Shown here: positions 404 to 64,000 of the stretch, piece by piece | Position numbering within the stretch: the first letter of the stretch is position 1 | Layout: each line of letters begins with the position of its first letter | From: Acidimicrobiia bacterium | GTDB lineage: Bacteria; Actinomycetota; Acidimicrobiia; Acidimicrobiales; CATQHL01 | NCBI GenBank assembly: GCA_009835395.1 | Contig: VXXM01000006.1 | Span: forward strand, 27,632-91,631 | Length of the DNA stretch: 64,000 bases | Reading direction: 5' to 3' | Notes under the pieces: generated by a model | Seen by the model: the letters and a program-made list of their open reading frames with translations, nothing else | Told to the model about the DNA's origin: nothing | Database searches by the model: none | Made by a program: the position numbers and the translations under genes

Positions 404-2517
404 GCCTGGCGACGCCGCCCGGCGGGGGTCGGTCCTCCGGTGCGGGCGGCGGCCGGCAGCGCGAGCCTGCCGCCGGGCAACGGGGACGTTTCAGCCGTTA
501 CGACTCGCGCCGGCTGCGCCTCAGCATCCTCGGCGTGATCGGGCTGGCACTTCTGGTGACGCTCGTGGTTCGCCTGTGGTACCTGCAGGTCGTGACGTCG
601 GAGCAGTTCGTGGAGAGGGCCGTCGGCAACATCATCCGCACCGTGCCCGAGCCGGCGCCCCGCGGTCGCATCTTCGACGTGCACGGCCGGGAGCTGGTCG
701 GCAACCGCATCGTCAACGTCGTCACGATGGACGCTTTCATCCTTCGTGACCAGATCGGGACGGCGCAGCGCCAGCGTCTCGCCCTGGAGTTGGCGCGCCA
801 GCTCTCGCGTTCAGGGGTCCTGACCAAGTCCGTGGAGTTGGCCGAGGCGCTGGCCGACCCCGCCTACGGACCCTTCGACCGGATTCCCCTGGCGGTCGGC
901 GTGTCGGACGCCATCAAGGTGTTCCTGGCCGAGCGGAACGAGGAGTTTCCCGGCGTCGAGGTGGTGCGGCGAACCCAGCGGGTCTATCCCTACGGAGACC
1001 TGGCGGCGCACGTGCTCGGCTACATCGACACCATCACCGCCGAGGAGATCGAGGCGCGCAGCAACCATCCGAAGCGTTACAGCACGGTGGACGAGATCGG
1101 CAAGTCGGGTGTGGAACTGGCATTCGAGGACGTGCTGCGCGGCACCCCCGGATGGCGTGAGATCGAAGTCGACAACGTCGGCAACGTGATCCGCGAGCGC
1201 GGCTACCGGGCGCCACAGCCGGGAACCGACCTCGTGCTCACGATCGATGCTGATCTGCAACGGTTCGTCGAGGAGGAGTTGCTGCGCGGCCTGGAGGAGG
1301 CCCGTGCCCGCCAGAACGAGGATGTGGAGGACTCCTTCGAGACATTCGCCGCCCCGGCGGGCGCCGCGGTCGTGCTGGATCCCCGCAACGGCAACGTCCT
1401 GGCCATGGCCAGTTACCCGGACTACGACCCGCGGGTCTTCATCGGCGGCATCAGCGAGGAGGAGTTCGACGCCTTCGTGCATCCGGCGAGTCATGCGCCC
1501 CTGAACAACCGAGCCATCCAGGGCGTGTACTCGCCCGCCTCGACCATGAAACCCCTCACGTCCTACGCGGCGCTCTCCACGGGCCTGCTCGGACCGGACG
1601 GTTTCCTGGGCATCACCCAGACCACCGAAGACCCCGGCTATCACGTGCTGGATGACTGCATCGGCGAGTGCGAGTTCGAGAACCCCGACCGCGCGCCCAA
1701 CGGGGACGTGGACCTGCGCATGGCGATCACGGTGTCCAGCGACGTGTACTTCTACAAACTGGCTGAGCAGTTCTCGCTCCGGGCCGGCTACGACGAGGAT
1801 CAGATCCAGCAGACCGCGCGGGACTTCGGCTTCGGGAAGACCACCGGCATCGCCCTCCCGTTCGAGCACGCCGGAATCGTGCCGGACGCCGAGATCAAGC
1901 AAGCCCGCCACGATGCCAACCCGGAGGCGTTCCCCGACCCGGATTGGCGTACGGGCGACACGATCAACATCTCCATCGGCCAGGGAGACCTGGGTGTGAC
2001 CCCGCTGCAGCTGGCGAACTCCTTCACGCCGTTCGCCAACGGGGGCAGGATCTACCTGCCCAACATCGCCGTCGGCATGATCGACCCCGTGAGCGGCGAG
2101 ACGGTCAACCTGATCCGCCCGCGCCTCACCTCCCGCCTCTACCTGCCGCCGGACCTGCAGGCTCCGATCCTGGACGGCATGCGCGGCGCCACCACGCTGC
2201 GCACCAACGAACGCGTCGGCACCGCCCAGGGGGCCTTCAACGGCTTTCCCCACGACCAGTGGCCGGTGGCGGGCAAGACCGGCACCGCGGAGGTGCTGGG
2301 CAAGGCCGACTCGGCGGTGTTCGTGGGGTTCGGCCCTCTGCCCCAGCCGCGCTACCTGGTGGCGGTCCTGCTCGAGGAGGCCGGCTTCGGTGGCGAGGCC
2401 GCGGCTCCGGTGGTGCGCCGGATTCTCGAGGCGGTGGCCCTTGACCGGATTCCCGAGACGGCGGCGGAGATCACCCGCCAGGACTTGGCCGTGGTGCCTT
2501 CGGCGGAGCCGTCGTGA
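400..2517 (+). CDS. mrdA: Penicillin-binding protein 2 (class B transpeptidase)
   Basis: N-terminal TM, PAPRGRIFD dimerisation domain, SxxK (STMK), SxD (SSD), KTG motifs; lies between mreD and rodA. Confidence 0.93.
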   Translation: MSLATPPGGGRSSGAGGGRQREPAAGQRGRFSRYDSRRLRLSILGVIGLALLVTLVVRLWYLQVVTSEQFVERAVGNIIRTVPEPAPRGRIFDVHGRELVGNRIVNVVTMDAFILRDQIGTAQRQRLALELARQLSRSGVLTKSVELAEALADPAYGPFDRIPLAVGVSDAIKVFLAERNEEFPGVEVVRRTQRVYPYGDLAAHVLGYIDTITAEEIEARSNHPKRYSTVDEIGKSGVELAFEDVLRGTPGWREIEVDNVGNVIRERGYRAPQPGTDLVLTIDADLQRFVEEELLRGLEEARARQNEDVEDSFETFAAPAGAAVVLDPRNGNVLAMASYPDYDPRVFIGGISEEEFDAFVHPASHAPLNNRAIQGVYSPASTMKPLTSYAALSTGLLGPDGFLGITQTTEDPGYHVLDDCIGECEFENPDRAPNGDVDLRMAITVSSDVYFYKLAEQFSLRAGYDEDQIQQTARDFGFGKTTGIALPFEHAGIVPDAEIKQARHDANPEAFPDPDWRTGDTINISIGQGDLGVTPLQLANSFTPFANGGRIYLPNIAVGMIDPVSGETVNLIRPRLTSRLYLPPDLQAPILDGMRGATTLRTNERVGTAQGAFNGFPHDQWPVAGKTGTAEVLGKADSAVFVGFGPLPQPRYLVAVLLEEAGFGGEAAAPVVRRILEAVALDRIPETAAEITRQDLAVVPSAEPS

Positions 2518-36144: not shown

Positions 36145-37761
36145 ATGACACGTAGACGTATGACTCGTTGGCTCGTGATGCCGCTGCTGGCCGCGCTGGC
36201 CGTGCTTGCGGCATCGTGCGCCGACACCGGCGCGGCCGATGACGCCATGGCCGAGGCTGCGGCTGCCCGCTCCGAGGCCGCTGCTGCGGCCGCCGACGCC
36301 GCTGGGGCGGCTTCGGCTGCTTCCGCTGCATCGGCCGACGCCGCCGCGGCGAACAACCGGGCGGACGCCCTCGAGGCCGAGACCGCGGCCGCCAACGCCG
36401 CTGCCGCGGCAGCGCAGGCCGCTGCGGACGCGGCCAGCGCGGCGGCGGACTTGGCTCAGGCCACCGCCGAGGGCAACGTGGCGGCTGTGGCCGCTGCGGA
36501 GGCAGCCCTGGAGGCTGCCCAGGCCACCGCCGATGAGGCACAGGCCTTCGCCGCGCAGGCGCAGGAGGAGGCCGCTGCAGCCCAGGCCGAGGCTGCTGCC
36601 GCGCAGGCCGAGGCCGAAGCCGCCCAGCAGGAGGCCGCAGCTGCGCAGGCCGAGGCTGCCGCTGCGGGCGAGGAGGCCGCCGCCGCGCAGGAGTCGCTCG
36701 CTTTCGCAACCGACCAGCTCGCAGCCGCCCAGGCGGCCGCCACCGAGGCCGGCGGCGACCTGCCGTTCACGCACGTCCTCAGGGACGGCAGCGACTTCGT
36801 GCTGAACGAGCGCATCGCCCGCAAGATCCGGACCGGAGAGCCGGTCAACTACCTGTTCTCCTACCAGTCCTCGGGTATCGCGCTGTTCTCCGACCAGTAC
36901 GAGGCGGGCTTCCAGGCCACCCAGGGTGATGCCTACCGGATCTACCCCATGAACTTCACGGTCGTGGCGCCGGTGACGAGTCCCTTCGACATCCAGGAGC
37001 AGATCGCCCAGATCGAGGCGCAGGTCGCCGTCGATCAGGTCGACTGCCTGTCGATCGAGCCGGCGGACTCGAACTCCTTCACGGAGCTCACGAACCGCCT
37101 CCTCGCCGATGGCATCCCCGTGTTCACCGTGGGCCTCACGACGAACGGCAACGAGTTCACCAACTTCACCCAGGTGCCGTACAACGAGGGCCGTCAGGCC
37201 GCCGAGCTCTCCGTGGAGTTCATGCGGGAGAACGGCTACGAGTGGGACACCTTCATGGTTTCCGGCGGTGACCCGACGCAGTTCTGGGCCCAGGGCCGGA
37301 TGACGGGCTTCTACGACCGCATCCTGGAACTGCTGCCCGACGCCGAGTTCCTCACCACTCCCGATAACGGGATCCAGGTCGGCGGCGGCGGCTATGACCC
37401 GGGGATCAGCTACGACGACTACTCGGCGATCCTGGTCGGCAACCCCGAGTTGGACTTCATCGAGAACGTGGACATCGGCGCCGAGCACGCCAACCGGGCG
37501 ATCATCGACGGTGGCCGCGAGGGCGAGGTGTTCACGATCGGCTGGAACGTCAGCTACGGGCAGCTCGACGGCGTCGAGCGGGGCATCCAGGTTGCGGCGC
37601 TCGACCAGCGCTGGTCGGAGCAGGCCGGCTTCGGCGCCATCGCCTGCGCCGAGTTCCTGGCCAACGGCAGGATTCTGCCGAACACGCAGACGCTGCTGCC
37701 GATCCAGAAGGAGCAGGTCGAGGCGGCCCGCCGCGACCTGGATCTGATTCTCGGCGGCTGA
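36145..37761 (+). CDS. Sugar-type (CUT2, RbsB-like) ABC substrate-binding lipoprotein with long Ala-rich N-terminal extension
   Basis: Lipobox LAASC (Cys25); ~177 aa Ala/Glu/Gln region; class I periplasmic fold motifs (LSIEPAD, GIPVFTV, YNEGRQAA); first gene of SBP-permease-ATPase operon. Confidence 0.82.
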   Translation: MTRRRMTRWLVMPLLAALAVLAASCADTGAADDAMAEAAAARSEAAAAAADAAGAASAASAASADAAAANNRADALEAETAAANAAAAAAQAAADAASAAADLAQATAEGNVAAVAAAEAALEAAQATADEAQAFAAQAQEEAAAAQAEAAAAQAEAEAAQQEAAAAQAEAAAAGEEAAAAQESLAFATDQLAAAQAAATEAGGDLPFTHVLRDGSDFVLNERIARKIRTGEPVNYLFSYQSSGIALFSDQYEAGFQATQGDAYRIYPMNFTVVAPVTSPFDIQEQIAQIEAQVAVDQVDCLSIEPADSNSFTELTNRLLADGIPVFTVGLTTNGNEFTNFTQVPYNEGRQAAELSVEFMRENGYEWDTFMVSGGDPTQFWAQGRMTGFYDRILELLPDAEFLTTPDNGIQVGGGGYDPGISYDDYSAILVGNPELDFIENVDIGAEHANRAIIDGGREGEVFTIGWNVSYGQLDGVERGIQVAALDQRWSEQAGFGAIACAEFLANGRILPNTQTLLPIQKEQVEAARRDLDLILGG

Positions 37762-40577: not shown

Positions 40578-42239
40578 TCAGCCGCTCCTCGTGATGACGA
40601 CCGTGTCGGCGGTCGAGGTAGCCGATCGCACGGTGATGGTGTAGCCGCGAAGGCTGAGGCTCTCACCTTCGGTGAGGAACGGGGATCGGTCAATCGTCCC
40701 GCTGCCGGTGTCGTCCCCGATCTTGAGCGGGAGTGCGCCCGAGTCAAGGGTGGAATCCACCGTGTACACCAGCACACCATCGCTTCCCCACGGGATGTCG
40801 TCGTAGCCGATCCGGCGCCTGCTCTCGACGACGATGACCTCGGTGTCCGAGAGGGGGATTGCCGCCATTGCCGTCCCGTCGCCGGGGTCGGCGACGGGGC
40901 TCAGAACGACCGTCGCGTCGCCCTCGGTGACACAGCGGACCTGACCGGTGGTGAGCCAGCCGAGTTGCCAGCGGCTCCAGGCCAGCATCTCGGGGTGGGT
41001 GACGTAGCTCGCGTTGTCGCCGATGGCCGGGTAGTAGACGTCCAACCCCATGAGACCGAATCGAGCATATGCCCAAGTCGTGCTGGCCGGCCGCTCGGGT
41101 CGGTCCACGATGTGCGGGTAGAGGTCTGCAAGGCCGAAACTGTGCGCCATCTCGTGCGCCATGACGTCACCCCAGTCGAAGGGTTCACCGGGGCGATCGG
41201 ATCTCACCCACGAGTTCACGACCGGTGCATGAGCGATGTCGTCCTCCGCCGTGGTGAGCGGCGGAGACTGAACTCCGGCAGCGCCGGCCCAGAAGTGCGA
41301 ACTCGGCATCACCACCAGCGCCATGCCGTATCCGGTGAAGTCGAGGTGTGGATCCGCCAGCCGCACGGCTTCGGCTTGAGGGGTTACTCCCACCGTGACC
41401 CACCGCCGACCGTCCCAGATCGATTGTCCGTCGAGGTTGTATTCGTCGTAGTCGTGCTCGGCGCGGAGCCAGCGGTGCAGCGGCTCGAACTGCAGGTCGA
41501 GCCTTCCGTAACTTGCGCCCTCGAGGTACGTCTCGATATGGGCGAGCGCGGAAGCCGACTCCTGGCGAGTCGTATGGGTGGCCTCGGCGTTGGGGAAGTC
41601 CAGGAACAGCACTGCGACGCGCACCGTCCCGGTCGCCCGAAGGAAGACAGGGGGCAGCGGGAATCCCACAGTGTCGTTGTGGATGCCCCGCGGTCGGCAC
41701 GCGGCATGTCCATTGCCGTCGACACCGACGGAACTCGCCGGTTCAGACTCCGCCGCGCCCGTCCGGAGCGTCAGAGGGGAACTGACCAGCCACCGCCCGA
41801 CGGTCGCGGTGGTGGGGAAGAAGCGCCGGGACGGCAGCATCCGGTCGCTCCAGGAGTTGTCCGCTAGGCGCTGCTGCAGGCCGAACTCGATCCGGCCGTC
41901 GGCGACCTTGCGGGCCACGATGCGTGCGCCCAGCGTGAGGGGGGAACTGACCAGCCAATGCCCGACCGTTGCGGTGGTGGGGAAGAAGCGCCGGGACGGC
42001 AGCATCCGGTCGCTCCAGGAGTTGTCCGCCAGGCGCTGCTGCAGGCCGAACTCGATCCGGCCGTCGGCGACCTTGCGAGCCACGATCCGCACCGTGTCCG
42101 GGCCTTCCTGGGCCTCTGTGGGATCTCCGGTGAACCCGGCGAAGAGAATTGCGACGAGAGCGGCGATCAGGAGACCAGACAGACAACGCCGCCATCGACT
42201 CGAGACTGGGGAACCAAGGCACGTGACTGTGAATTGCAT
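40578..42239 (-). CDS. Secreted M6 (immune inhibitor A-like) metalloprotease with tandem 55-aa N-terminal module
   Basis: Signal peptide; HEMAHSFGLADLY, FGLMG Met-turn, WSRWQLGW, GVLVYTVD. Confidence 0.78.
   Translation of the reverse strand: MQFTVTCLGSPVSSRWRRCLSGLLIAALVAILFAGFTGDPTEAQEGPDTVRIVARKVADGRIEFGLQQRLADNSWSDRMLPSRRFFPTTATVGHWLVSSPLTLGARIVARKVADGRIEFGLQQRLADNSWSDRMLPSRRFFPTTATVGRWLVSSPLTLRTGAAESEPASSVGVDGNGHAACRPRGIHNDTVGFPLPPVFLRATGTVRVAVLFLDFPNAEATHTTRQESASALAHIETYLEGASYGRLDLQFEPLHRWLRAEHDYDEYNLDGQSIWDGRRWVTVGVTPQAEAVRLADPHLDFTGYGMALVVMPSSHFWAGAAGVQSPPLTTAEDDIAHAPVVNSWVRSDRPGEPFDWGDVMAHEMAHSFGLADLYPHIVDRPERPASTTWAYARFGLMGLDVYYPAIGDNASYVTHPEMLAWSRWQLGWLTTGQVRCVTEGDATVVLSPVADPGDGTAMAAIPLSDTEVIVVESRRRIGYDDIPWGSDGVLVYTVDSTLDSGALPLKIGDDTGSGTIDRSPFLTEGESLSLRGYTITVRSATSTADTVVITRSG
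41767..42089 (-). repeat. 165-nt tandem duplication encoding two near-identical 53-aa modules
   Basis: 41767-41924 vs 41932-42089; RIVARKVADGRIEFGLQQRLADNSWSDRMLPSRRFFPTTATVG(H/R)WLVSSPLTL. Confidence 0.95.
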
Positions 42240-58775: not shown

Positions 58776-59099
58776 TCAATACGTGATGTCGAGGGCGAAG
58801 CGGAGTGCGCGGTCCAGGTCGGCTCGGACGATCTCGTTGAGACGGCCGACCGGTTGCGGGTCGAGTTCGGTGAGGGGGACGGTGAGGATGTTGTCGCAGT
58901 TGATGACGCAGGGCTCTGAGAGGCCCGCGTCTGGGCCGATCTCCACCTCCGAGCGAATGCCACGGATCGTGCGGGTGATCGGCGCGCAGGTGACTGTCGT
59001 TAGGACCGACGCGGCGGCATCTCTCGTGAGGACGCAGACGGGGCGCCGACCGGCAGGAGGGCCGAGGTCGGCCCAGTAGATCTCGTTGCGGGCTACCAC
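58776..59099 (-). CDS. PemK/MazF-family endoribonuclease toxin
   Basis: EIYWADLG..AGRRPVCVL, APIT, INCDNILTV; overlaps antitoxin stop. Confidence 0.88.
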   Translation of the reverse strand: MVARNEIYWADLGPPAGRRPVCVLTRDAAASVLTTVTCAPITRTIRGIRSEVEIGPDAGLSEPCVINCDNILTVPLTELDPQPVGRLNEIVRADLDRALRFALDITY

Positions 59100-59338
59100 T
59101 CGGGCACTGTGCGAGCCGCCAGGCGAGCCGCCGATCGTGCGAGCGCTGGATCCGGAGGTTGCCGGCGGTAGGCAGCGATCAACTCGGCGTCGGCAGTGGC
59201 CGCCTCGTCGGCTTCGATCACCGCTCGAGCTCCGCGGCGGAGGAGTTCGGATCTGCTGGTGCTGCGCGCCGCGGCGATGCGGTCCAACTCTGTGACGAGA
59301 TCGTCATCGAGCTGGACTAGCACCTCACGTCTGGCCAT
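59093..59338 (-). CDS. CopG/RHH-type antitoxin
   Basis: VLVQLDDDLVTELD...SRSELLR ribbon-helix-helix; directly upstream of toxin. Confidence 0.85.
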   Translation of the reverse strand: MARREVLVQLDDDLVTELDRIAAARSTSRSELLRRGARAVIEADEAATADAELIAAYRRQPPDPALARSAARLAARTVPEW

Positions 59339-59359
59339 GACCATATGTTAGACCATATG
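59339..59359 (-). promoter_or_regulatory. TA promoter/operator: two GACCATATG repeats flanking -10 TAACAT
   Basis: gaccatatg at 59339-47 and 59351-59; minus-strand TAACAT 6 nt before ATG. Confidence 0.65.
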
Positions 59360-59624: not shown

Positions 59625-61274
59625 ATGGTTGCAGAGACCTACGAGACCACCGGCGCCGGGGCGCAGCCCGAGGGCGACTTTGACGCGGTCGTCATCGGCG
59701 CGGGAGCGGCCGGGCTCTACGCGCTGCACCGGCTGCGGGGACTCGGACTCTCGGTGCGGGTGTTCGAGCAGGGCGACGGCGTGGGGGGGACGTGGTACTG
59801 GAACCGCTATCCCGGCGCCCGCTGCGACGTGGAGAGTTGGGACTACTGCTACTCGTTCTCCGAGGAACTCGAGCAGGAGTGGGACTGGACCGAGCGGTTC
59901 CCCAGCCAACCGGAGCTGGAGCGCTACTTCAATCACGTCGCCGACCGCTTCGACCTGCGCCGCGACATCCAATTCGACACGCGGGTGGAGCGGGCCGGCT
60001 TCGACGAGGGCCGCAACCGCTGGATCATCGACACGTCGGGCGGGGCCACGGTCTCGGCCCGGTTCCTGGTGTCGGCGGCGGGCTGCCTCTCGGAGGTGAA
60101 CAAGCCGGTGATCCCGGGTGCGGAGACGTTCGCGGGGGTGCAACTCCACACCGCCCGCTGGCCCGACGAGGGCGTCGACGTGGCCGGCAAGCGGGTCGGC
60201 GTGATCGGCACCGGGTCCAGCGGCGTGCAGGTGATTCCCCAGGTCGCCAGGACGGCCGACCACGTCTACGTCTTCCAACGCACCGCGCAGTACACCGTGC
60301 CGGCACGGAACCGCCTGCTCGACGACGAGGCCCGCCAGGAACTCCGCGACAGCTTCGCCGAGCGGCAGAAGTTCAAGCGCACCACTCCCGCCGGGCTGTC
60401 CCGCCCCGTCGTCCCGGCGTCGTCGGACCTGGACGCAGCCGCGCGTGCCGAGATTCTCGAGGCCTCCTGGCAGCGGGGAGGGCCGGGCTTCGCGATGACC
60501 ATCGACGACATCCTGACCAACCCGGAATCGAACGAGCGAGCCGCCCGGTTCGTGCGCGACAAGGTCCGGGCCAAGGTCGACGACCAGGCGGTGGCCGAGA
60601 AGCTCGTGGACATCGACTTCCCGATCGGGGCCCGGCGCCTGATCGTCGACATCGACTACTTCGAGACCTACAACCGCGACAACGTCACGCTGGTGGACGT
60701 GAAGGCGGCGCCGATCACCGAGATCACGTCCGGGGGGCTGCGGACGTTAGACGCCCACTACGACCTTGACGTGCTGGTCTACGCCACCGGCTTCGACGGG
60801 ATGACCGGTGCGCTGCTGTCGATGGACATCCGCGGCGTCGGCGGGCTAGCGCTGCGGGACAAGTGGGCCGACGGGGCGGGCACCTACATCGGCCTGGTCG
60901 CATCGGGATTCCCGAACCTGTTCATGATCACCGGGCCGGGCAGCCCGGCGGTGTTCAGCAACGTCATGCTGTCGATCGAGCAGCACGTGGACTGGATCGC
61001 CGACTGCCTCGCCCACATGGTCGAGGGCGGCTTCGAGCGCATCGACGCCGACCCGGAGGCCGAGGCCCGCTGGACCCGGCTGGTGGAGGATCTCGTCGCC
61101 CGCAGCATCGTCGGCAAGACGAACTCGTGGTGGACCGGGGCGAACATCCCGGGCAAGCCCCGCGGCATCACGATGTACCTGGGCGGAACCCACAACTACC
61201 GGGCCGCCTGCGACGAGGTCGCCGCCAACGGTTACGAGGGATTCACCCTCACCCGGCCGGCCGATCCGGCCTAG
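59625..61274 (+). CDS. Type I Baeyer-Villiger monooxygenase
   Basis: GAGAAG, GGTWYWNRYPGARCD, fingerprint FAGVQLHTARWP, GTGSSG, ATGFD. Confidence 0.93.
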   Translation: MVAETYETTGAGAQPEGDFDAVVIGAGAAGLYALHRLRGLGLSVRVFEQGDGVGGTWYWNRYPGARCDVESWDYCYSFSEELEQEWDWTERFPSQPELERYFNHVADRFDLRRDIQFDTRVERAGFDEGRNRWIIDTSGGATVSARFLVSAAGCLSEVNKPVIPGAETFAGVQLHTARWPDEGVDVAGKRVGVIGTGSSGVQVIPQVARTADHVYVFQRTAQYTVPARNRLLDDEARQELRDSFAERQKFKRTTPAGLSRPVVPASSDLDAAARAEILEASWQRGGPGFAMTIDDILTNPESNERAARFVRDKVRAKVDDQAVAEKLVDIDFPIGARRLIVDIDYFETYNRDNVTLVDVKAAPITEITSGGLRTLDAHYDLDVLVYATGFDGMTGALLSMDIRGVGGLALRDKWADGAGTYIGLVASGFPNLFMITGPGSPAVFSNVMLSIEQHVDWIADCLAHMVEGGFERIDADPEAEARWTRLVEDLVARSIVGKTNSWWTGANIPGKPRGITMYLGGTHNYRAACDEVAANGYEGFTLTRPADPA

Positions 61275-61297: not shown

Positions 61298-61819
61298 TCA
61301 GGCGCCTGCGGCTGCGGCCGCGGTGACGTCGTCCTCGGTGACGCGGCCGCTGGGTCCGGTACCGACAACCGAGTCGAGGTCGACGCCGAGTTCGGTGGCC
61401 AATCGCCGCGCACGCGGTGCGATCTGGCGGCGGGATCCGCCAGCACTCTCGTCATTCCGGCGGAGGCCGGAATCCACTGCAGGCCCACGCGGTGCGTCTG
61501 GCGGATCTGCCTCCTCGGCGACATCCCGGTTGACGGCGTCCTGCCGGTCCTCGACGCCATCCGGCTCGACGGCTCCGGCGGGGCCGATCACGGCCAGCAA
61601 CTCGTTGACGGCGACGGTCTCGCCCTCGGGCACCAGGATGCGCTGGAGCACGCCGCCGTCGGTTGCCACCAGTTCCTCGGTGACCTTCTCCGCCTCGATC
61701 TCGGCCACCACCTCCCCGGCCGCCACCGGGTCGCCCTCGCGCTTGAACCAGGTGATGATCGTGCCCTCCTGCATCCCCATGCCGAACTGGGGGAGTCGGA
61801 TCTCGGTGACCGCGGTCAT
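61298..61819 (-). CDS. Lipoyl domain + peripheral subunit-binding domain protein with no acyltransferase domain (mini-E2), 173 aa
   Basis: LPQFGMGMQEGTI, EIEAEKV lipoyl-Lys, APRARRLATELGVDL...GTGPSGRVTEDDV, then TGA. Confidence 0.85.
   Translation of the reverse strand: MTAVTEIRLPQFGMGMQEGTIITWFKREGDPVAAGEVVAEIEAEKVTEELVATDGGVLQRILVPEGETVAVNELLAVIGPAGAVEPDGVEDRQDAVNRDVAEEADPPDAPRGPAVDSGLRRNDESAGGSRRQIAPRARRLATELGVDLDSVVGTGPSGRVTEDDVTAAAAAGA
61450..61478. repeat. CGTC-tagged REP-like palindrome, copy 2 (in frame inside the mini-E2 linker)
   Basis: cgtcattccggcggaggccggaatccact; reads VDSGLRRNDE on the minus strand. Confidence 0.85.
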
Positions 61820-62784
61820 GCCATCAGTTCGCGGGCGGCGGCTGCGATCCGATCGGCGCTCGGGTACAGGGGGCGCTCGAGGGCGGCGCTGTAGGGGATC
61901 TGCGTGTGGGGCGTCGTCACCCGGGCGATCGGTGCCTGGAGGTCCCAGAACCCTTCCCCGGCGACGATCGCGGCAACCTCGGACGCCACCGAGCCCATCT
62001 CGTGAGCGGGATCGGCGACGACGAGCCTGCCGGTCTTTGCGACCGAGGCCAGCACGGTCCGGCGGTCCAGGGGCACGATCGACCGGAGGTCGACCACCTC
62101 TGCTGATATCCCTTCGTCGGCGAGTTCCTCGGCCGCGGTCAGGGCATGGGCGACCGCTCCCGCCAGGGCCACGACGGTGACATCGTCGCCCTCCCGCTTG
62201 ACGTCGGCCACGCCGAGGGGGACGACATGGTCGCCGTCGGGCACCTCGCCGCGCTGGCCCCACAGGCCGCCGTCCTCGAAGCTGATCACGGGGTCGTCGT
62301 CGCGGATCGCTGCCTTGAGCATCCCCTTGGCGTCGGCGGGCGTGGCCGGCGCGATGAGCTTCAGGCCGGGGATCGTCATCAGGGCGGGGTAGGGCCGGTC
62401 GGAGTGCTGGGCGGCGTTGCCGCGGTTGTACAGCATGGGCGCCATCAGCGTGATCGGCAGCTTGGCCTGCCCGCCGTAGAGGTAGGTGGACTTGGCGATG
62501 ATCGAGACGAGCTGGTCGAACGCCACGTACACGAACGGTGCGATCAGCATGTGCACGACCGGACGCATACCCACCATGGCCGCGCCGGCGCCCGCCCCCA
62601 CGAAGCCGGCCTCGGAGATCGGCGTGTCGCGGACCCGCTCCTGGCCGAACTTGTCGACCAGCCCCGTGGTGGAGCCCATGAGGCCCCAGGTCACGTCCTC
62701 GCCCATCACGAAGACCGACTGGTCGCGTTCCATCTCCTCGACGAGCGCCTCGTTGAGCGCCTCGAGGTAGGTCAGGGTTCGCAT
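61816..62784 (-). CDS. ThDP-dependent dehydrogenase E1 beta subunit (AcoB/PdhB-like)
   Basis: MGEDV, DTPISEAG, AQHS, VVDLRSIVPLD. Confidence 0.92.
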   Translation of the reverse strand: MRTLTYLEALNEALVEEMERDQSVFVMGEDVTWGLMGSTTGLVDKFGQERVRDTPISEAGFVGAGAGAAMVGMRPVVHMLIAPFVYVAFDQLVSIIAKSTYLYGGQAKLPITLMAPMLYNRGNAAQHSDRPYPALMTIPGLKLIAPATPADAKGMLKAAIRDDDPVISFEDGGLWGQRGEVPDGDHVVPLGVADVKREGDDVTVVALAGAVAHALTAAEELADEGISAEVVDLRSIVPLDRRTVLASVAKTGRLVVADPAHEMGSVASEVAAIVAGEGFWDLQAPIARVTTPHTQIPYSAALERPLYPSADRIAAAARELMA

Positions 62785-62794
62785 GGCGGGACGC

Positions 62795-63772
62795 TCAGGC
62801 ATCGATCGGGTTGGTGAACAGGTGCGTGAAGGCGGCCTCGGGTGGAGGGGCGGGACTCGAGCGGGCGAAGTCCAGCGCCTCGGCCAGTTCTGCCTCGACC
62901 TCTTTGTCGATGACGTCCAGTTCGTCGCCGTCGACGCCTCGTTCCCCCAATGCGTCGCGGAACAGCACGAGCGGGTCACGCTGCGTCCGCCAGTGCTCGA
63001 TCTCGGCGGGGTCGCGGTAGTTCTCGATCCGGATGCCGATCGCGTGGTTGTCGAACCGGTAGGTCATCGTCTCCACCAGGCTCGGCCCCTCGCCGCGGCG
63101 AGCCCGTGTCACGGCCTCGCTGACCGCTTCGTACACGGCGAGCACGTCTTGGCCGTCCACGGTGACACCGGGCATGCCGTAGCCCGCGGCCCGCTCCGAC
63201 ACCTCCTCGACCGCCGTGGTCTTGTGTGCAGCGGTCAGCTCGCCGTAGCCGTTGTTCTCGCACACGTACACCGCCGGGAGCGTCCAGATCGCCGCCAGGT
63301 TGAGCGACTCGTGGAACGTCCCCTGGTTGGAGGCACCGTCGCCGAAGAAGCACAGCGTCACCCGATCGATGCCCTGCAGCTTGGAGCCAAGCGCCGCTCC
63401 CGCCGCCACCGGCAGCCCCGACCCGACGATCGACGTCTCCCCGAGGCTCCCCACCGAGAAGTCCGACAGGTGCATCGACCCGCCCTTGCCCTGGTTCACC
63501 CCGGTCTCCTTGCCCATCAACTCGGCGAGGAGGCCATCCAGCGCGGCCCCCTTGCCGATGGGATGGCCGTGCGAGCGGTGCGTGCCGACCATGTAGTCGT
63601 CGTCGCGAAGAGCCATGCACGCCCCGACGATCGAAGCCTCCTGGCCGGTCGAGGTGTGGAAGGCGCCGTACAGCTCCCCGGCGAGCAGGAGTTCCTTGGT
63701 CGTGGCCTCGAACTGCCGGATGCGCGACATGCGCCGGTACATCTCCCGCAGATCGCCACCGCTGACCGTCAT
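62795..63772 (-). CDS. ThDP-dependent dehydrogenase E1 alpha subunit (AcoA/PdhA-like)
   Basis: HRSHGH, GKGGSMH, GDGASNQG...ENN ThDP motif; GAGGAG before ATG 63772 (alternative ATG 63799). Confidence 0.92.
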   Translation of the reverse strand: MTVSGGDLREMYRRMSRIRQFEATTKELLLAGELYGAFHTSTGQEASIVGACMALRDDDYMVGTHRSHGHPIGKGAALDGLLAELMGKETGVNQGKGGSMHLSDFSVGSLGETSIVGSGLPVAAGAALGSKLQGIDRVTLCFFGDGASNQGTFHESLNLAAIWTLPAVYVCENNGYGELTAAHKTTAVEEVSERAAGYGMPGVTVDGQDVLAVYEAVSEAVTRARRGEGPSLVETMTYRFDNHAIGIRIENYRDPAEIEHWRTQRDPLVLFRDALGERGVDGDELDVIDKEVEAELAEALDFARSSPAPPPEAAFTHLFTNPIDA

Positions 63773-63790
63773 GACATGCTCCTCGCCTGA

Positions 63791-63808
63791 GGGCGTCATA
63801 TTACGCCC
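63791..63808. promoter_or_regulatory. Palindromic operator candidate overlapping the E1 alpha -10 (TAATAT, minus strand)
   Basis: GGGCGTCAT|ATTACGCCC, 8 of 9 positions pair. Confidence 0.55.
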
Positions 63809-63823
63809 GCCCGATGGGGTGCG

Positions 63824-64000
63824 ATGATGAGGTCCGTGGGACGTCTGGACGGCAAGGTCGCGATCGTGACCGGCGCGGGCTCGGGTCTCGGCCGGGCCGC
63901 GGCGCTCCGGTTCGCGGCCGAGGGAGCCTCGGTGGCGTGTGTCGACCTGGATCGCGAAGGTGCGCAGGAGACGGTCTCGGCGATGGGGGAGCGGGGCCTG
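63824..64000 (+). CDS. Short-chain dehydrogenase/reductase (3' truncated by window edge)
   Basis: [29 protein letters not shown]. Confidence 0.88.

Follow-up and report, generated by a model that had tools for sequence, protein, structure and literature searches.

A conserved E1alpha/E1beta operon of Acidimicrobiia with an E2-derived protein that apparently acts as a core-less swinging arm

In the present study, we analyzed a stretch of 64,000 nucleotides from a sponge-symbiont bacterium of the Acidimicrobiia, hereafter called the window (C73:27632-91631), and found that a thiamine diphosphate (ThDP)-dependent E1alpha/E1beta gene pair is followed by a gene for a 173-aa protein, which consists of a lipoyl domain and a peripheral-subunit (E1/E3) binding domain (PSBD) and lacks the catalytic core of an E2 acyltransferase. 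The 2-oxoacid dehydrogenases are the textbook multienzyme complex, which is built on an E2 core carrying its own swinging arms. Sequence comparisons indicated that the core-less protein, which we call mini-E2, is an old, selected design and not a broken gene, and we regard it as quite probably a functional carrier for its own E1. The source genome comprises 3.16 Mb in 95 contigs, is 94% complete and has a G+C content of ~70%. The operon contains three genes:

62795..63799, minus strand: E1alpha, the ThDP-binding subunit of a heterotetrameric 2-oxoacid/acetoin-type dehydrogenase (PF00676 E1_dh, 275 bits)
61816..62802, minus strand: E1beta (PF02779 Transket_pyr and PF02780 Transketolase_C)
61298..61819, minus strand: mini-E2, 173 aa, lipoyl domain and PSBD without catalytic core (PF00364 and PF02817, AlphaFold2 model)

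The adjacent E1_dh-type alpha and Transket_pyr/Transketolase_C-type beta genes identified the enzyme as a heterotetrameric (alpha2beta2) ThDP-dependent E1. E1beta scored 324.7 bits against NF006667, above the cut-off of 321. E1alpha scored 328 bits against TIGR03182 (PDH_E1_alph_y), for which the cut-off is 394, and so did not reach the level of a pyruvate dehydrogenase (PDH) equivalog; its closest solved structure was human PDH E1alpha (216 bits). The stop of E1alpha and E1beta overlap by 8 nt, and the stop of E1beta and the start of mini-E2 overlap as ATGA (gcATGAcc), which agrees with the translational coupling of the third gene that had been proposed in a preliminary description of this DNA. 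The same description had placed the E1alpha start at 63772; this is one of two possible start ATGs, and the longest open reading frame (ORF) begins at the other, 63799. The coordinates also supported a clean end after 173 aa: the stop codon of mini-E2 (61298-61300) is separated by 23 nt from position 61274, where the convergent ORF of a Baeyer-Villiger monooxygenase (BVMO) ends.

Within mini-E2, three segments were distinguished:

61586..61804, minus strand: lipoyl domain, residues 6-78 (PF00364 Biotin_lipoyl, 69.6 bits)
61424..61585, minus strand: flexible inter-domain linker, residues 79-132 (predicted local distance difference test score, pLDDT, <50; high dN/dS; variable length among orthologs)
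61325..61423, minus strand: PSBD, residues 133-165 (PF02817 E3_binding, 52 bits)

Mini-E2 thus has the N-terminal lipoyl domain with lipoyl-lysine that is expected of an E2. The lysine motif, which had been described as intact, was found as K45 in EIEAEKV (codon 61685-61687), and K45 was unchanged in all 24 aligned sequences. The binding domain, which had been called complete, covers positions 3-35 of the 36 in its profile, and in the same alignment P135, R139, G153, G155 and G158 were invariant or nearly so. An AlphaFold2 model built on the 24 sequences revealed a beta-barrel at residues 1-80 (pLDDT about 90), disorder at residues 87-129 (pLDDT <50) and a two-helix PSBD at residues 130-170 (pLDDT about 82-86), with no further structure in mini-E2. 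The Pfam scan gave no match of mini-E2 to PF00198, the 2-oxoacid_dh core with its DHRxxDG motif. When outgroup full-length E2s were used as tblastn queries, only their residues 1 to ~155 aligned to the window, and no core remnant was detected in any frame; as had been stated earlier, no catalytic core, AcoC-type hydrolase or E3 gene lies 3' of mini-E2 at this locus. Mini-E2 ends 8 residues past the PSBD and hence has no core-forming C-terminal domain of the kind found in the E3-binding protein (E3BP). Against the AcoC-type model NF011457, it scored 84.5 bits (cut-off 307) over profile positions 3-126 of 372, without the hydrolase fold. The Pfam scan assigned the lipoyl domain to Biotin_lipoyl and not to GCV_H (PF01597), the fold of the glycine-cleavage H protein and LbpA.

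The occurrence of mini-E2 in other genomes was examined in two ways. A word-indexed protein search restricted to lengths near that of mini-E2 yielded over 70 clusters of proteins 156-191 aa in length, in which PF00364 and PF02817 were the only domains; identities were 62-93%, and some of the genes lie on contigs as long as 3.9 Mb. At NCBI such a protein is called 'E3 binding domain-containing protein'. A scan of species-representative genomes gave 80 loci. Twelve of these (L014-L025), all in metagenome-assembled genomes (MAGs) of Acidimicrobiales/Acidimicrobiia and several from sponges, have a 154-178-aa ORF ending just past the PSBD, and their E1alpha and E1beta are 80-96% identical to those of the window. 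The gene order E1alpha-E1beta-mini-E2 was constant in all twelve, and the convergent BVMO was present in 11 of the 12. No catalytic-core remnant was found by tblastn with outgroup E2s in the mini-E2 loci tested. The preliminary description had proposed a search for such triplets and a dN/dS analysis: triplets were found in 12 species-level relatives and in one apparently independent case (L026), and Nei-Gojobori dN/dS, calculated for 78 pairs from 13 orthologs (median dS 0.28-0.77), was low in the lipoyl domain (0.18) and the PSBD (0.21) and higher in the linker (0.60), which indicated purifying selection on the folded domains. A full-length E2 in close relatives, which had been named as a sign of recent truncation, was seen only at loci with 72-80% E1 identity. 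The suggested alternative of a truncated E2 therefore holds in so far as mini-E2 descends from the truncation of an E2, but the truncation is old and fixed, not recent. Conservation, dN/dS and the lack of core remnants ruled out a recent truncation or a pseudogene.

For the clade of the window, an assembly or frameshift artefact was rejected, since the convergent BVMO lies directly next to mini-E2 in independent short- and long-read assemblies. Logan contigs of the sponge metagenome run X1 match the region without mismatch, and many sponge metagenomes hold it. Some more distant hits were dismissed as mini-E2s. P0081 and P0090 (L011, L013) are full-length E2s from long-read assemblies, where the short gene overlaps at its end with an ORF for PF00198, and P0083 (L012) has catalytic-domain matches in a second frame. 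At L011 (10380-10520), the E2 frame was observed to break inside a G run of a long-read assembly.

The linker of mini-E2 contains a repetitive extragenic palindrome (REP):

61450..61476, no strand assigned: REP-type palindrome TGGATTCCGGCctccGCCGGAATGACG, read in frame as VDSGLRRNDE in the mini-E2 linker; a genome-wide repeat

Its structure is TGGATTCCGGC-N4-GCCGGAATGACG; 12 exact copies occur in the genome, and a looser pattern matches 60 times. Among mini-E2 orthologs, a REP was found at a second linker position in P0060, P0065 and L018, a longer variant occupies the same linker position as in the window in L015 and L016, and the others have none. All these insertions preserve the frame and are confined to the linker. 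This variation implied that the element was inserted repeatedly and was tolerated only in the disordered linker.

Full-length E2s of 348-441 aa are encoded at the loci L027-L093, except at a few that are truncated by the end of a contig; these loci belong to other Acidimicrobiia, to Actinomycetota including the cultured Georgenia thermotolerans, and to many Dehalococcoidia/SAR202. In a maximum-likelihood tree of concatenated E1alpha and E1beta, the 12 mini-E2 loci formed one clade (Shimodaira-Hasegawa-like approximate likelihood-ratio test, SH-aLRT, 98), which was nested among the loci with full-length E2. The further case, in a MAG labelled Solirubrobacterales, grouped with the full-length locus L027 (SH-aLRT 97):

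L026 9992-10471: mini gene of 159 aa, lipoyl domain and PSBD only, separated from E1beta by two small SnoaL-like genes

This topology implies two core losses, both at the linker between PSBD and core. As far as the E1 tree goes, it suggests that the loss in L026 was independent of that in the clade of the window and occurred at the same domain boundary.

The distribution of mini-E2 was narrow. Among 201 evenly sampled genomes of the order, mini-E2s of high identity were restricted to the genus of the window, and a census of the family found mini-E2 in 13 of the 18 genomes of this genus and in none of the sister genus; four of the five genomes of the genus without it have a completeness of only 74-83%. 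An ortholog of this E1beta was found in none of the eight family genomes without mini-E2, where the best matches were paralogs of 40-48% identity. Since the E1beta ortholog is absent wherever mini-E2 is absent, E1alpha/E1beta and mini-E2 travel as one module.

A carrier without a core would need an acyltransferase elsewhere. The genome has exactly three PF00198 domains:

C72: housekeeping E2, 478-aa frame, with one lipoyl domain, PSBD and core
C94: OdhA/Kgd-type fusion, 1257-aa frame
C39:43877-44647: stand-alone catalytic-only E2, 256 aa, DHRAFDG motif kept

On C72 (17488-22005), the order of genes is lpd, the full-length housekeeping E2, a LipB/LplA-type gene and lipA. This lpd was the only E3 gene encountered in the genome, in which no dedicated genome-wide E3 search was made. 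The OdhA type was found in all ten mini-clade genomes that were checked for PF00198, and all family genomes hold the full E2. The stand-alone catalytic gene, for which the preliminary description had proposed a search, starts 50 nt past a P450 gene and is preceded by a GGAGG motif. Its family comprises 33 clusters of 246-266 aa at 75-100% identity. It was found in all 13 family genomes with mini-E2 and also in three incomplete genomes without mini-E2, so the co-occurrence of the two genes was suggestive, not significant. The gene is part of a conserved cluster:

C39:36000-52400 (L007; also L094-L097 and L099): Zn-ADH, ferredoxin reductase, SDR, ABC transporter, P450, catalytic-only E2, SDR, followed by SDR, glyoxalase, E1alpha2, E1beta2, an 81-aa lipoyl-only gene and MFS

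This cluster constitutes a second 2-oxoacid-dehydrogenase-like system, which is split into single-domain genes and has no PSBD. Catalytic-only hits outside the genus were not accepted as independent support, because all three that were examined (L109-L111) are immediately preceded by a lipoyl-only gene and adjoined by lpd or lipB; this context makes them most likely split gene calls of housekeeping E2s. More generally, the apparent 'split E2' pairs at L011, L013 and L109-L111 are likely split calls of full-length E2s and can mislead anyone surveying truncated E2s. The genome of L026 encodes a short PF00198 protein, but this protein is unrelated and without the catalytic His and was also rejected as a partner. 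This protein (L108 5686-6363, minus strand, 226-aa frame) is PF00198-like, has CDGRILYG in place of DHRxxDG and may be an inactive protein of the chloramphenicol acetyltransferase (CAT) fold.

The genome has seven E1alpha/E1beta pairs and one full-length E2. Five of the pairs (C41, C52, C39, C80 and C45/C43) adjoin a lipoyl-only gene of ~80 aa, each of which keeps the (E/D)K lysine motif:

C41:13243-13479, plus strand: lipoyl-only gene
C52:~36827-37066, minus strand: lipoyl-only gene
C39:51275-51520, plus strand: lipoyl-only gene
C80:~40678-40925, minus strand: lipoyl-only gene
C45:~987-1250, minus strand: lipoyl-only gene

The pair on C19 has no carrier gene nearby, and the mini-E2 operon is the only pair with a lipoyl-PSBD gene; the genome has two PSBDs, in the housekeeping E2 and in mini-E2. 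With five further E1 pairs each beside a lipoyl-only gene, free carriers are the rule in this genome. Similar lipoyl-only genes are common in metagenomes under the annotations 'biotin attachment protein' or 'lipoyl domain-containing protein'. Neither a description of a natural lipoyl-PSBD protein nor a characterization of such lipoyl-only genes was found in the searchable literature.

From the domains, conservation, selection, co-inheritance, candidate partners, lipoylation genes and transcripts of a relative reported here, we infer the following biochemical steps, partners and substrate class. K45 would be lipoylated by LipB/LipA (C72). Through its PSBD, mini-E2 would bind the E1 heterotetramer and the Lpd dimer (C72) in turn, and the disordered linker of ~50 residues would bring the lipoyl domain to the ThDP site for reductive acylation. 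Because no core is attached to mini-E2, the acyl-dihydrolipoyl domain would be unloaded to CoA in trans, with the catalytic-only E2 as the first candidate and the housekeeping E2 and the OdhA-type E2 domain as second candidates. Lpd would re-oxidize the arm and yield NADH. The outcome would be a distributive, non-assembling dehydrogenase for a 2-oxoacid (or an acetoin-type ketol). We favor, with moderate confidence, the proposal as a whole, in which a free carrier of lipoyl domain and PSBD works with its own E1 and passes the acyl group on to a core acting in trans. For the unloading enzyme, the catalytic-only E2 is a plausible choice that still falls short of probable, and the housekeeping E2 or OdhA would be a rather unlikely one. 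The preliminary description had already raised the possibility of a free carrier and had likened it to the glycine-cleavage H protein. The recurrence of the triplet, the stand-alone catalytic gene and the dN/dS values favor a functional carrier over a recent truncation, although the link of the catalytic gene to the operon is circumstantial; the likeness to H protein applies to function and not to fold, which is that of an E2-type lipoyl domain.

Several observations weigh against the proposal of a free carrier unloaded by the catalytic-only E2. The latter is not the detached core of mini-E2: it shares 32-38% identity with the outgroup cores and 64-70% with its closest full-length relatives, the housekeeping E2s of Acidimicrobiia, and this closeness marks it as a truncated duplicate of a housekeeping E2. 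The catalytic-only gene is present in 16 of the 18 genomes of the genus, so that its co-occurrence with mini-E2 in 13 of 13 genomes corresponds to a hypergeometric p of about 0.07, and all the co-occurring genomes come from one genus and are phylogenetically non-independent. Set in a cluster with its own E1 pair and carrier, it may chiefly serve that system. The E1 subunits are similar to those of PDH type but scored under the equivalog cut-offs, so that any substrate assignment would be tentative. Finally, sponge metatranscriptome contigs, which are about 92% identical and span BVMO, mini-E2, E1beta and E1alpha, lend weak support to transcription of the operon in a close relative, and these contigs may include DNA carry-over.

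From a functional carrier, the acyl group could also be taken over by the housekeeping E2 (C72) or by the E2 domain of the OdhA type (C94), in which case the didomain would plug its E1 into the central pyruvate and 2-oxoglutarate dehydrogenase (PDH/ODH) machinery and the catalytic-only E2 would belong solely to the C39 system. We give this a small but real chance. E2 cores are usually selective for the cognate lipoyl domain and acyl group, and no specific link of the housekeeping E2 to the mini-E2 operon was found. Nevertheless, the separate conserved cluster of the catalytic-only E2, with its own E1 pair and lipoyl-only carrier, the wide presence of the full E2 and OdhA noted above, and the ability of actinobacterial OdhA to use the lipoyl domains of other polypeptides (PMC8740704) all speak for it. 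It is improbable that no CoA transfer takes place at all, and that E1, the didomain and Lpd form an oxidative decarboxylase or ketol-cleaving system, in which the thioester is hydrolyzed or passed on or the arm is mainly a dithiol redox shuttle. The 12 loci have no transferase within 10 kb, and some of the operons have a gene for a thioesterase or an alpha/beta hydrolase nearby: L009 encodes a 4HBT_3 protein, and the genome of the window encodes a haloalkane-dehalogenase-like hydrolase. However, neither type is conserved with the operon, the dehalogenase-like hydrolase was found in 3 of about 12 loci, its match to the AcoC hydrolase domain is weak (52 bits, cut-off 307), and hydrolysis would forfeit the thioester energy that all characterized members of the family conserve.

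Two further explanations can be set against a functional free carrier for its own E1. Mini-E2 might be a decaying remnant, a stump left by deletion of the core and kept only by translational coupling to E1beta, while the E1 uses another carrier or is obsolete. Its descent from a full-length E2 and the REP element within its coding sequence fit such a history, but length and reading frame have been kept over 12 species at a dS of 0.28-0.43, dN/dS of the folded domains is about 0.2, the lipoyl lysine and the Arg and Gly residues of the PSBD are invariant, the REP insertions are in frame and limited to the linker, mini-E2 is strictly co-inherited with E1alpha/E1beta, and transcript contigs exist. 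We therefore consider decay very improbable. Mini-E2 might instead be an E3BP-like adaptor, which as the sole small PSBD protein would recruit Lpd (or E1s) both to its own module and to the five lipoyl-only ones. The genome indeed has only two PSBDs for six free carriers. This role is hard to reconcile with the strict gain and loss of mini-E2 together with its own E1alpha/E1beta, with the occurrence of the C39 lipoyl-only module also in genomes without mini-E2, and with the lack of any core in mini-E2 from which a scaffold could be built, and it appears highly unlikely.

The carrier genes allow a wider and more tentative proposal for the genus. It is possible, though doubtful, that the genus runs a dismantled hub-and-spoke network of 2-oxoacid/ketol dehydrogenases, with six E1 modules that have private carriers, one shared trimeric catalytic-only E2, one Lpd and no assembled complex. 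If this were true, catabolic E1 modules could be gained and lost as plug-ins.

The genes flanking the operon are as follows:

59655..61274, plus strand: type-I Baeyer-Villiger/flavin monooxygenase (BVMO), convergent, with FMO-like and Pyr_redox_3 domains
63824..64000, plus strand: short-chain dehydrogenase (SDR), divergent, continuing past the window end (C73:91455-92240; adh_short_C2, 215 bits)

The BVMO scored 242 bits against a PtlE-like model, far under the cut-off. The best curated matches of the SDR were generic SDR models, and it reached 219 bits for meso-2,3-butanediol dehydrogenase (cut-off 270); in the loci of five relatives, an SDR ortholog of 88-92% identity is located no more than about 2.5 kb from the operon. 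A RipB/Ich-like MaoC hydratase gene is conserved near the operon, a few kb away, in at least eight loci, and the copy of this genome lies at C73:93033-93701 on the minus strand. The conserved BVMO, SDR and MaoC neighbors do no more than hint at ketone, ketol or diol catabolism. At L009 (1041-4528), the MaoC hydratase stands together with an ADP-forming CoA ligase and an HpcH/HpaI lyase; this set resembles an itaconate or citramalyl-CoA-type route, and its product pyruvate could feed a PDH-like E1. The neighborhood of the Georgenia thermotolerans ortholog offered only an AraC regulator and an HpcH/HpaI aldolase as substrate clues. The nearby alpha/beta hydrolase was rejected as an AcoC-like partner, as it is dehalogenase-like and not conserved with the operon. 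Between a sulfatase gene and the BVMO (58776-59344, minus strand), a MazF/PemK-type toxin (107 aa) and an RHH antitoxin (83 aa) were found, and in relatives, PIN/RHH or MazE pairs occur near the E1/mini-E2 operon.

Core-less lipoyl-PSBD constructs are competent substrates of E1 and E3 in vitro, which provides a precedent for the core-less mini-E2. The engineered didomains of Geobacillus stearothermophilus E2p or of human E2p/E3BP (PDB 3DUF chain I, 1ZY8 chain K), whose chains were the closest PDB matches of mini-E2, have the same content of lipoyl domain, linker and PSBD and no core. In phmmer searches, residues 6-173 of mini-E2 aligned to residues 4-171 of G. stearothermophilus E2p, and residues 6-165 aligned to the 229-residue E3BP chain of 1ZY8. 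The engineered didomains are laboratory truncations of E2 or E3BP, whereas the truncation in mini-E2 is natural, genomically fixed and conserved across species. The canonical E2s at the orthologous loci of Georgenia thermotolerans and of Acidimicrobiia and Dehalococcoidia/SAR202 MAGs occupy the same position past E1beta, beside E1alpha/E1beta of 72-80% identity, and their lipoyl and PSBD parts are 45-53% identical to mini-E2; they are 374-440 aa in length and carry the PF00198 core, which mini-E2 does not. By its domain content mini-E2 is therefore not a member of the E2s, although it is clearly descended from them. The E3BP (protein X) of eukaryotic PDH resembles mini-E2 in having a lipoyl domain and PSBD without acyltransferase activity, but it keeps a catalytically dead, core-forming C-terminal domain that builds into the E2 scaffold, whereas mini-E2 ends after the PSBD. 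The glycine-cleavage H protein and LbpA-type carriers are likewise small, free lipoylated shuttles that visit several enzymes (lipoylation of mini-E2 being predicted); they have the GCV_H fold (PF01597), whereas mini-E2 combines an E2-type lipoyl domain with a PSBD. AcoC, a lipoyl domain joined to an alpha/beta-hydrolase fold, aligns in its N-terminal lipoyl part and is also encoded within an E1alpha/E1beta operon beside a dehydrogenase, but mini-E2 has no hydrolase-fold domain. Taken together, mini-E2 is apparently a natural, convergent example of a core-less swinging arm.

Actinobacterial OdhA (Kgd), which has no lipoyl domain, has been reported to use the lipoyl domains of E2p in trans (PMC8740704, a commentary on Bruch et al. 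2021). The OdhA system, from the same phylum, resembles the present one in that the lipoyl arm and the acyltransferase are on separate polypeptides and the E2 core is dismantled. The two differ in that the catalytic domain of OdhA is fused to E1 and the arm belongs to a full E2, whereas here the arm is free with a PSBD and a separate catalytic-only E2 exists. Work on Corynebacteriales has reportedly shown that Actinobacteria have a partly dismantled E2-core design. Given the catalytic-only E2 and the five lipoyl-only carriers, a fixed natural lipoyl-PSBD didomain would be the extreme of this trend, and the genome studied here seems to have taken the dismantling of E2 to such an extreme. It would offer a natural system for asking how far substrate channelling needs covalent tethering, what role a PSBD plays without a core to bind, and how catabolic E1 modules join a shared E2/E3 back end.

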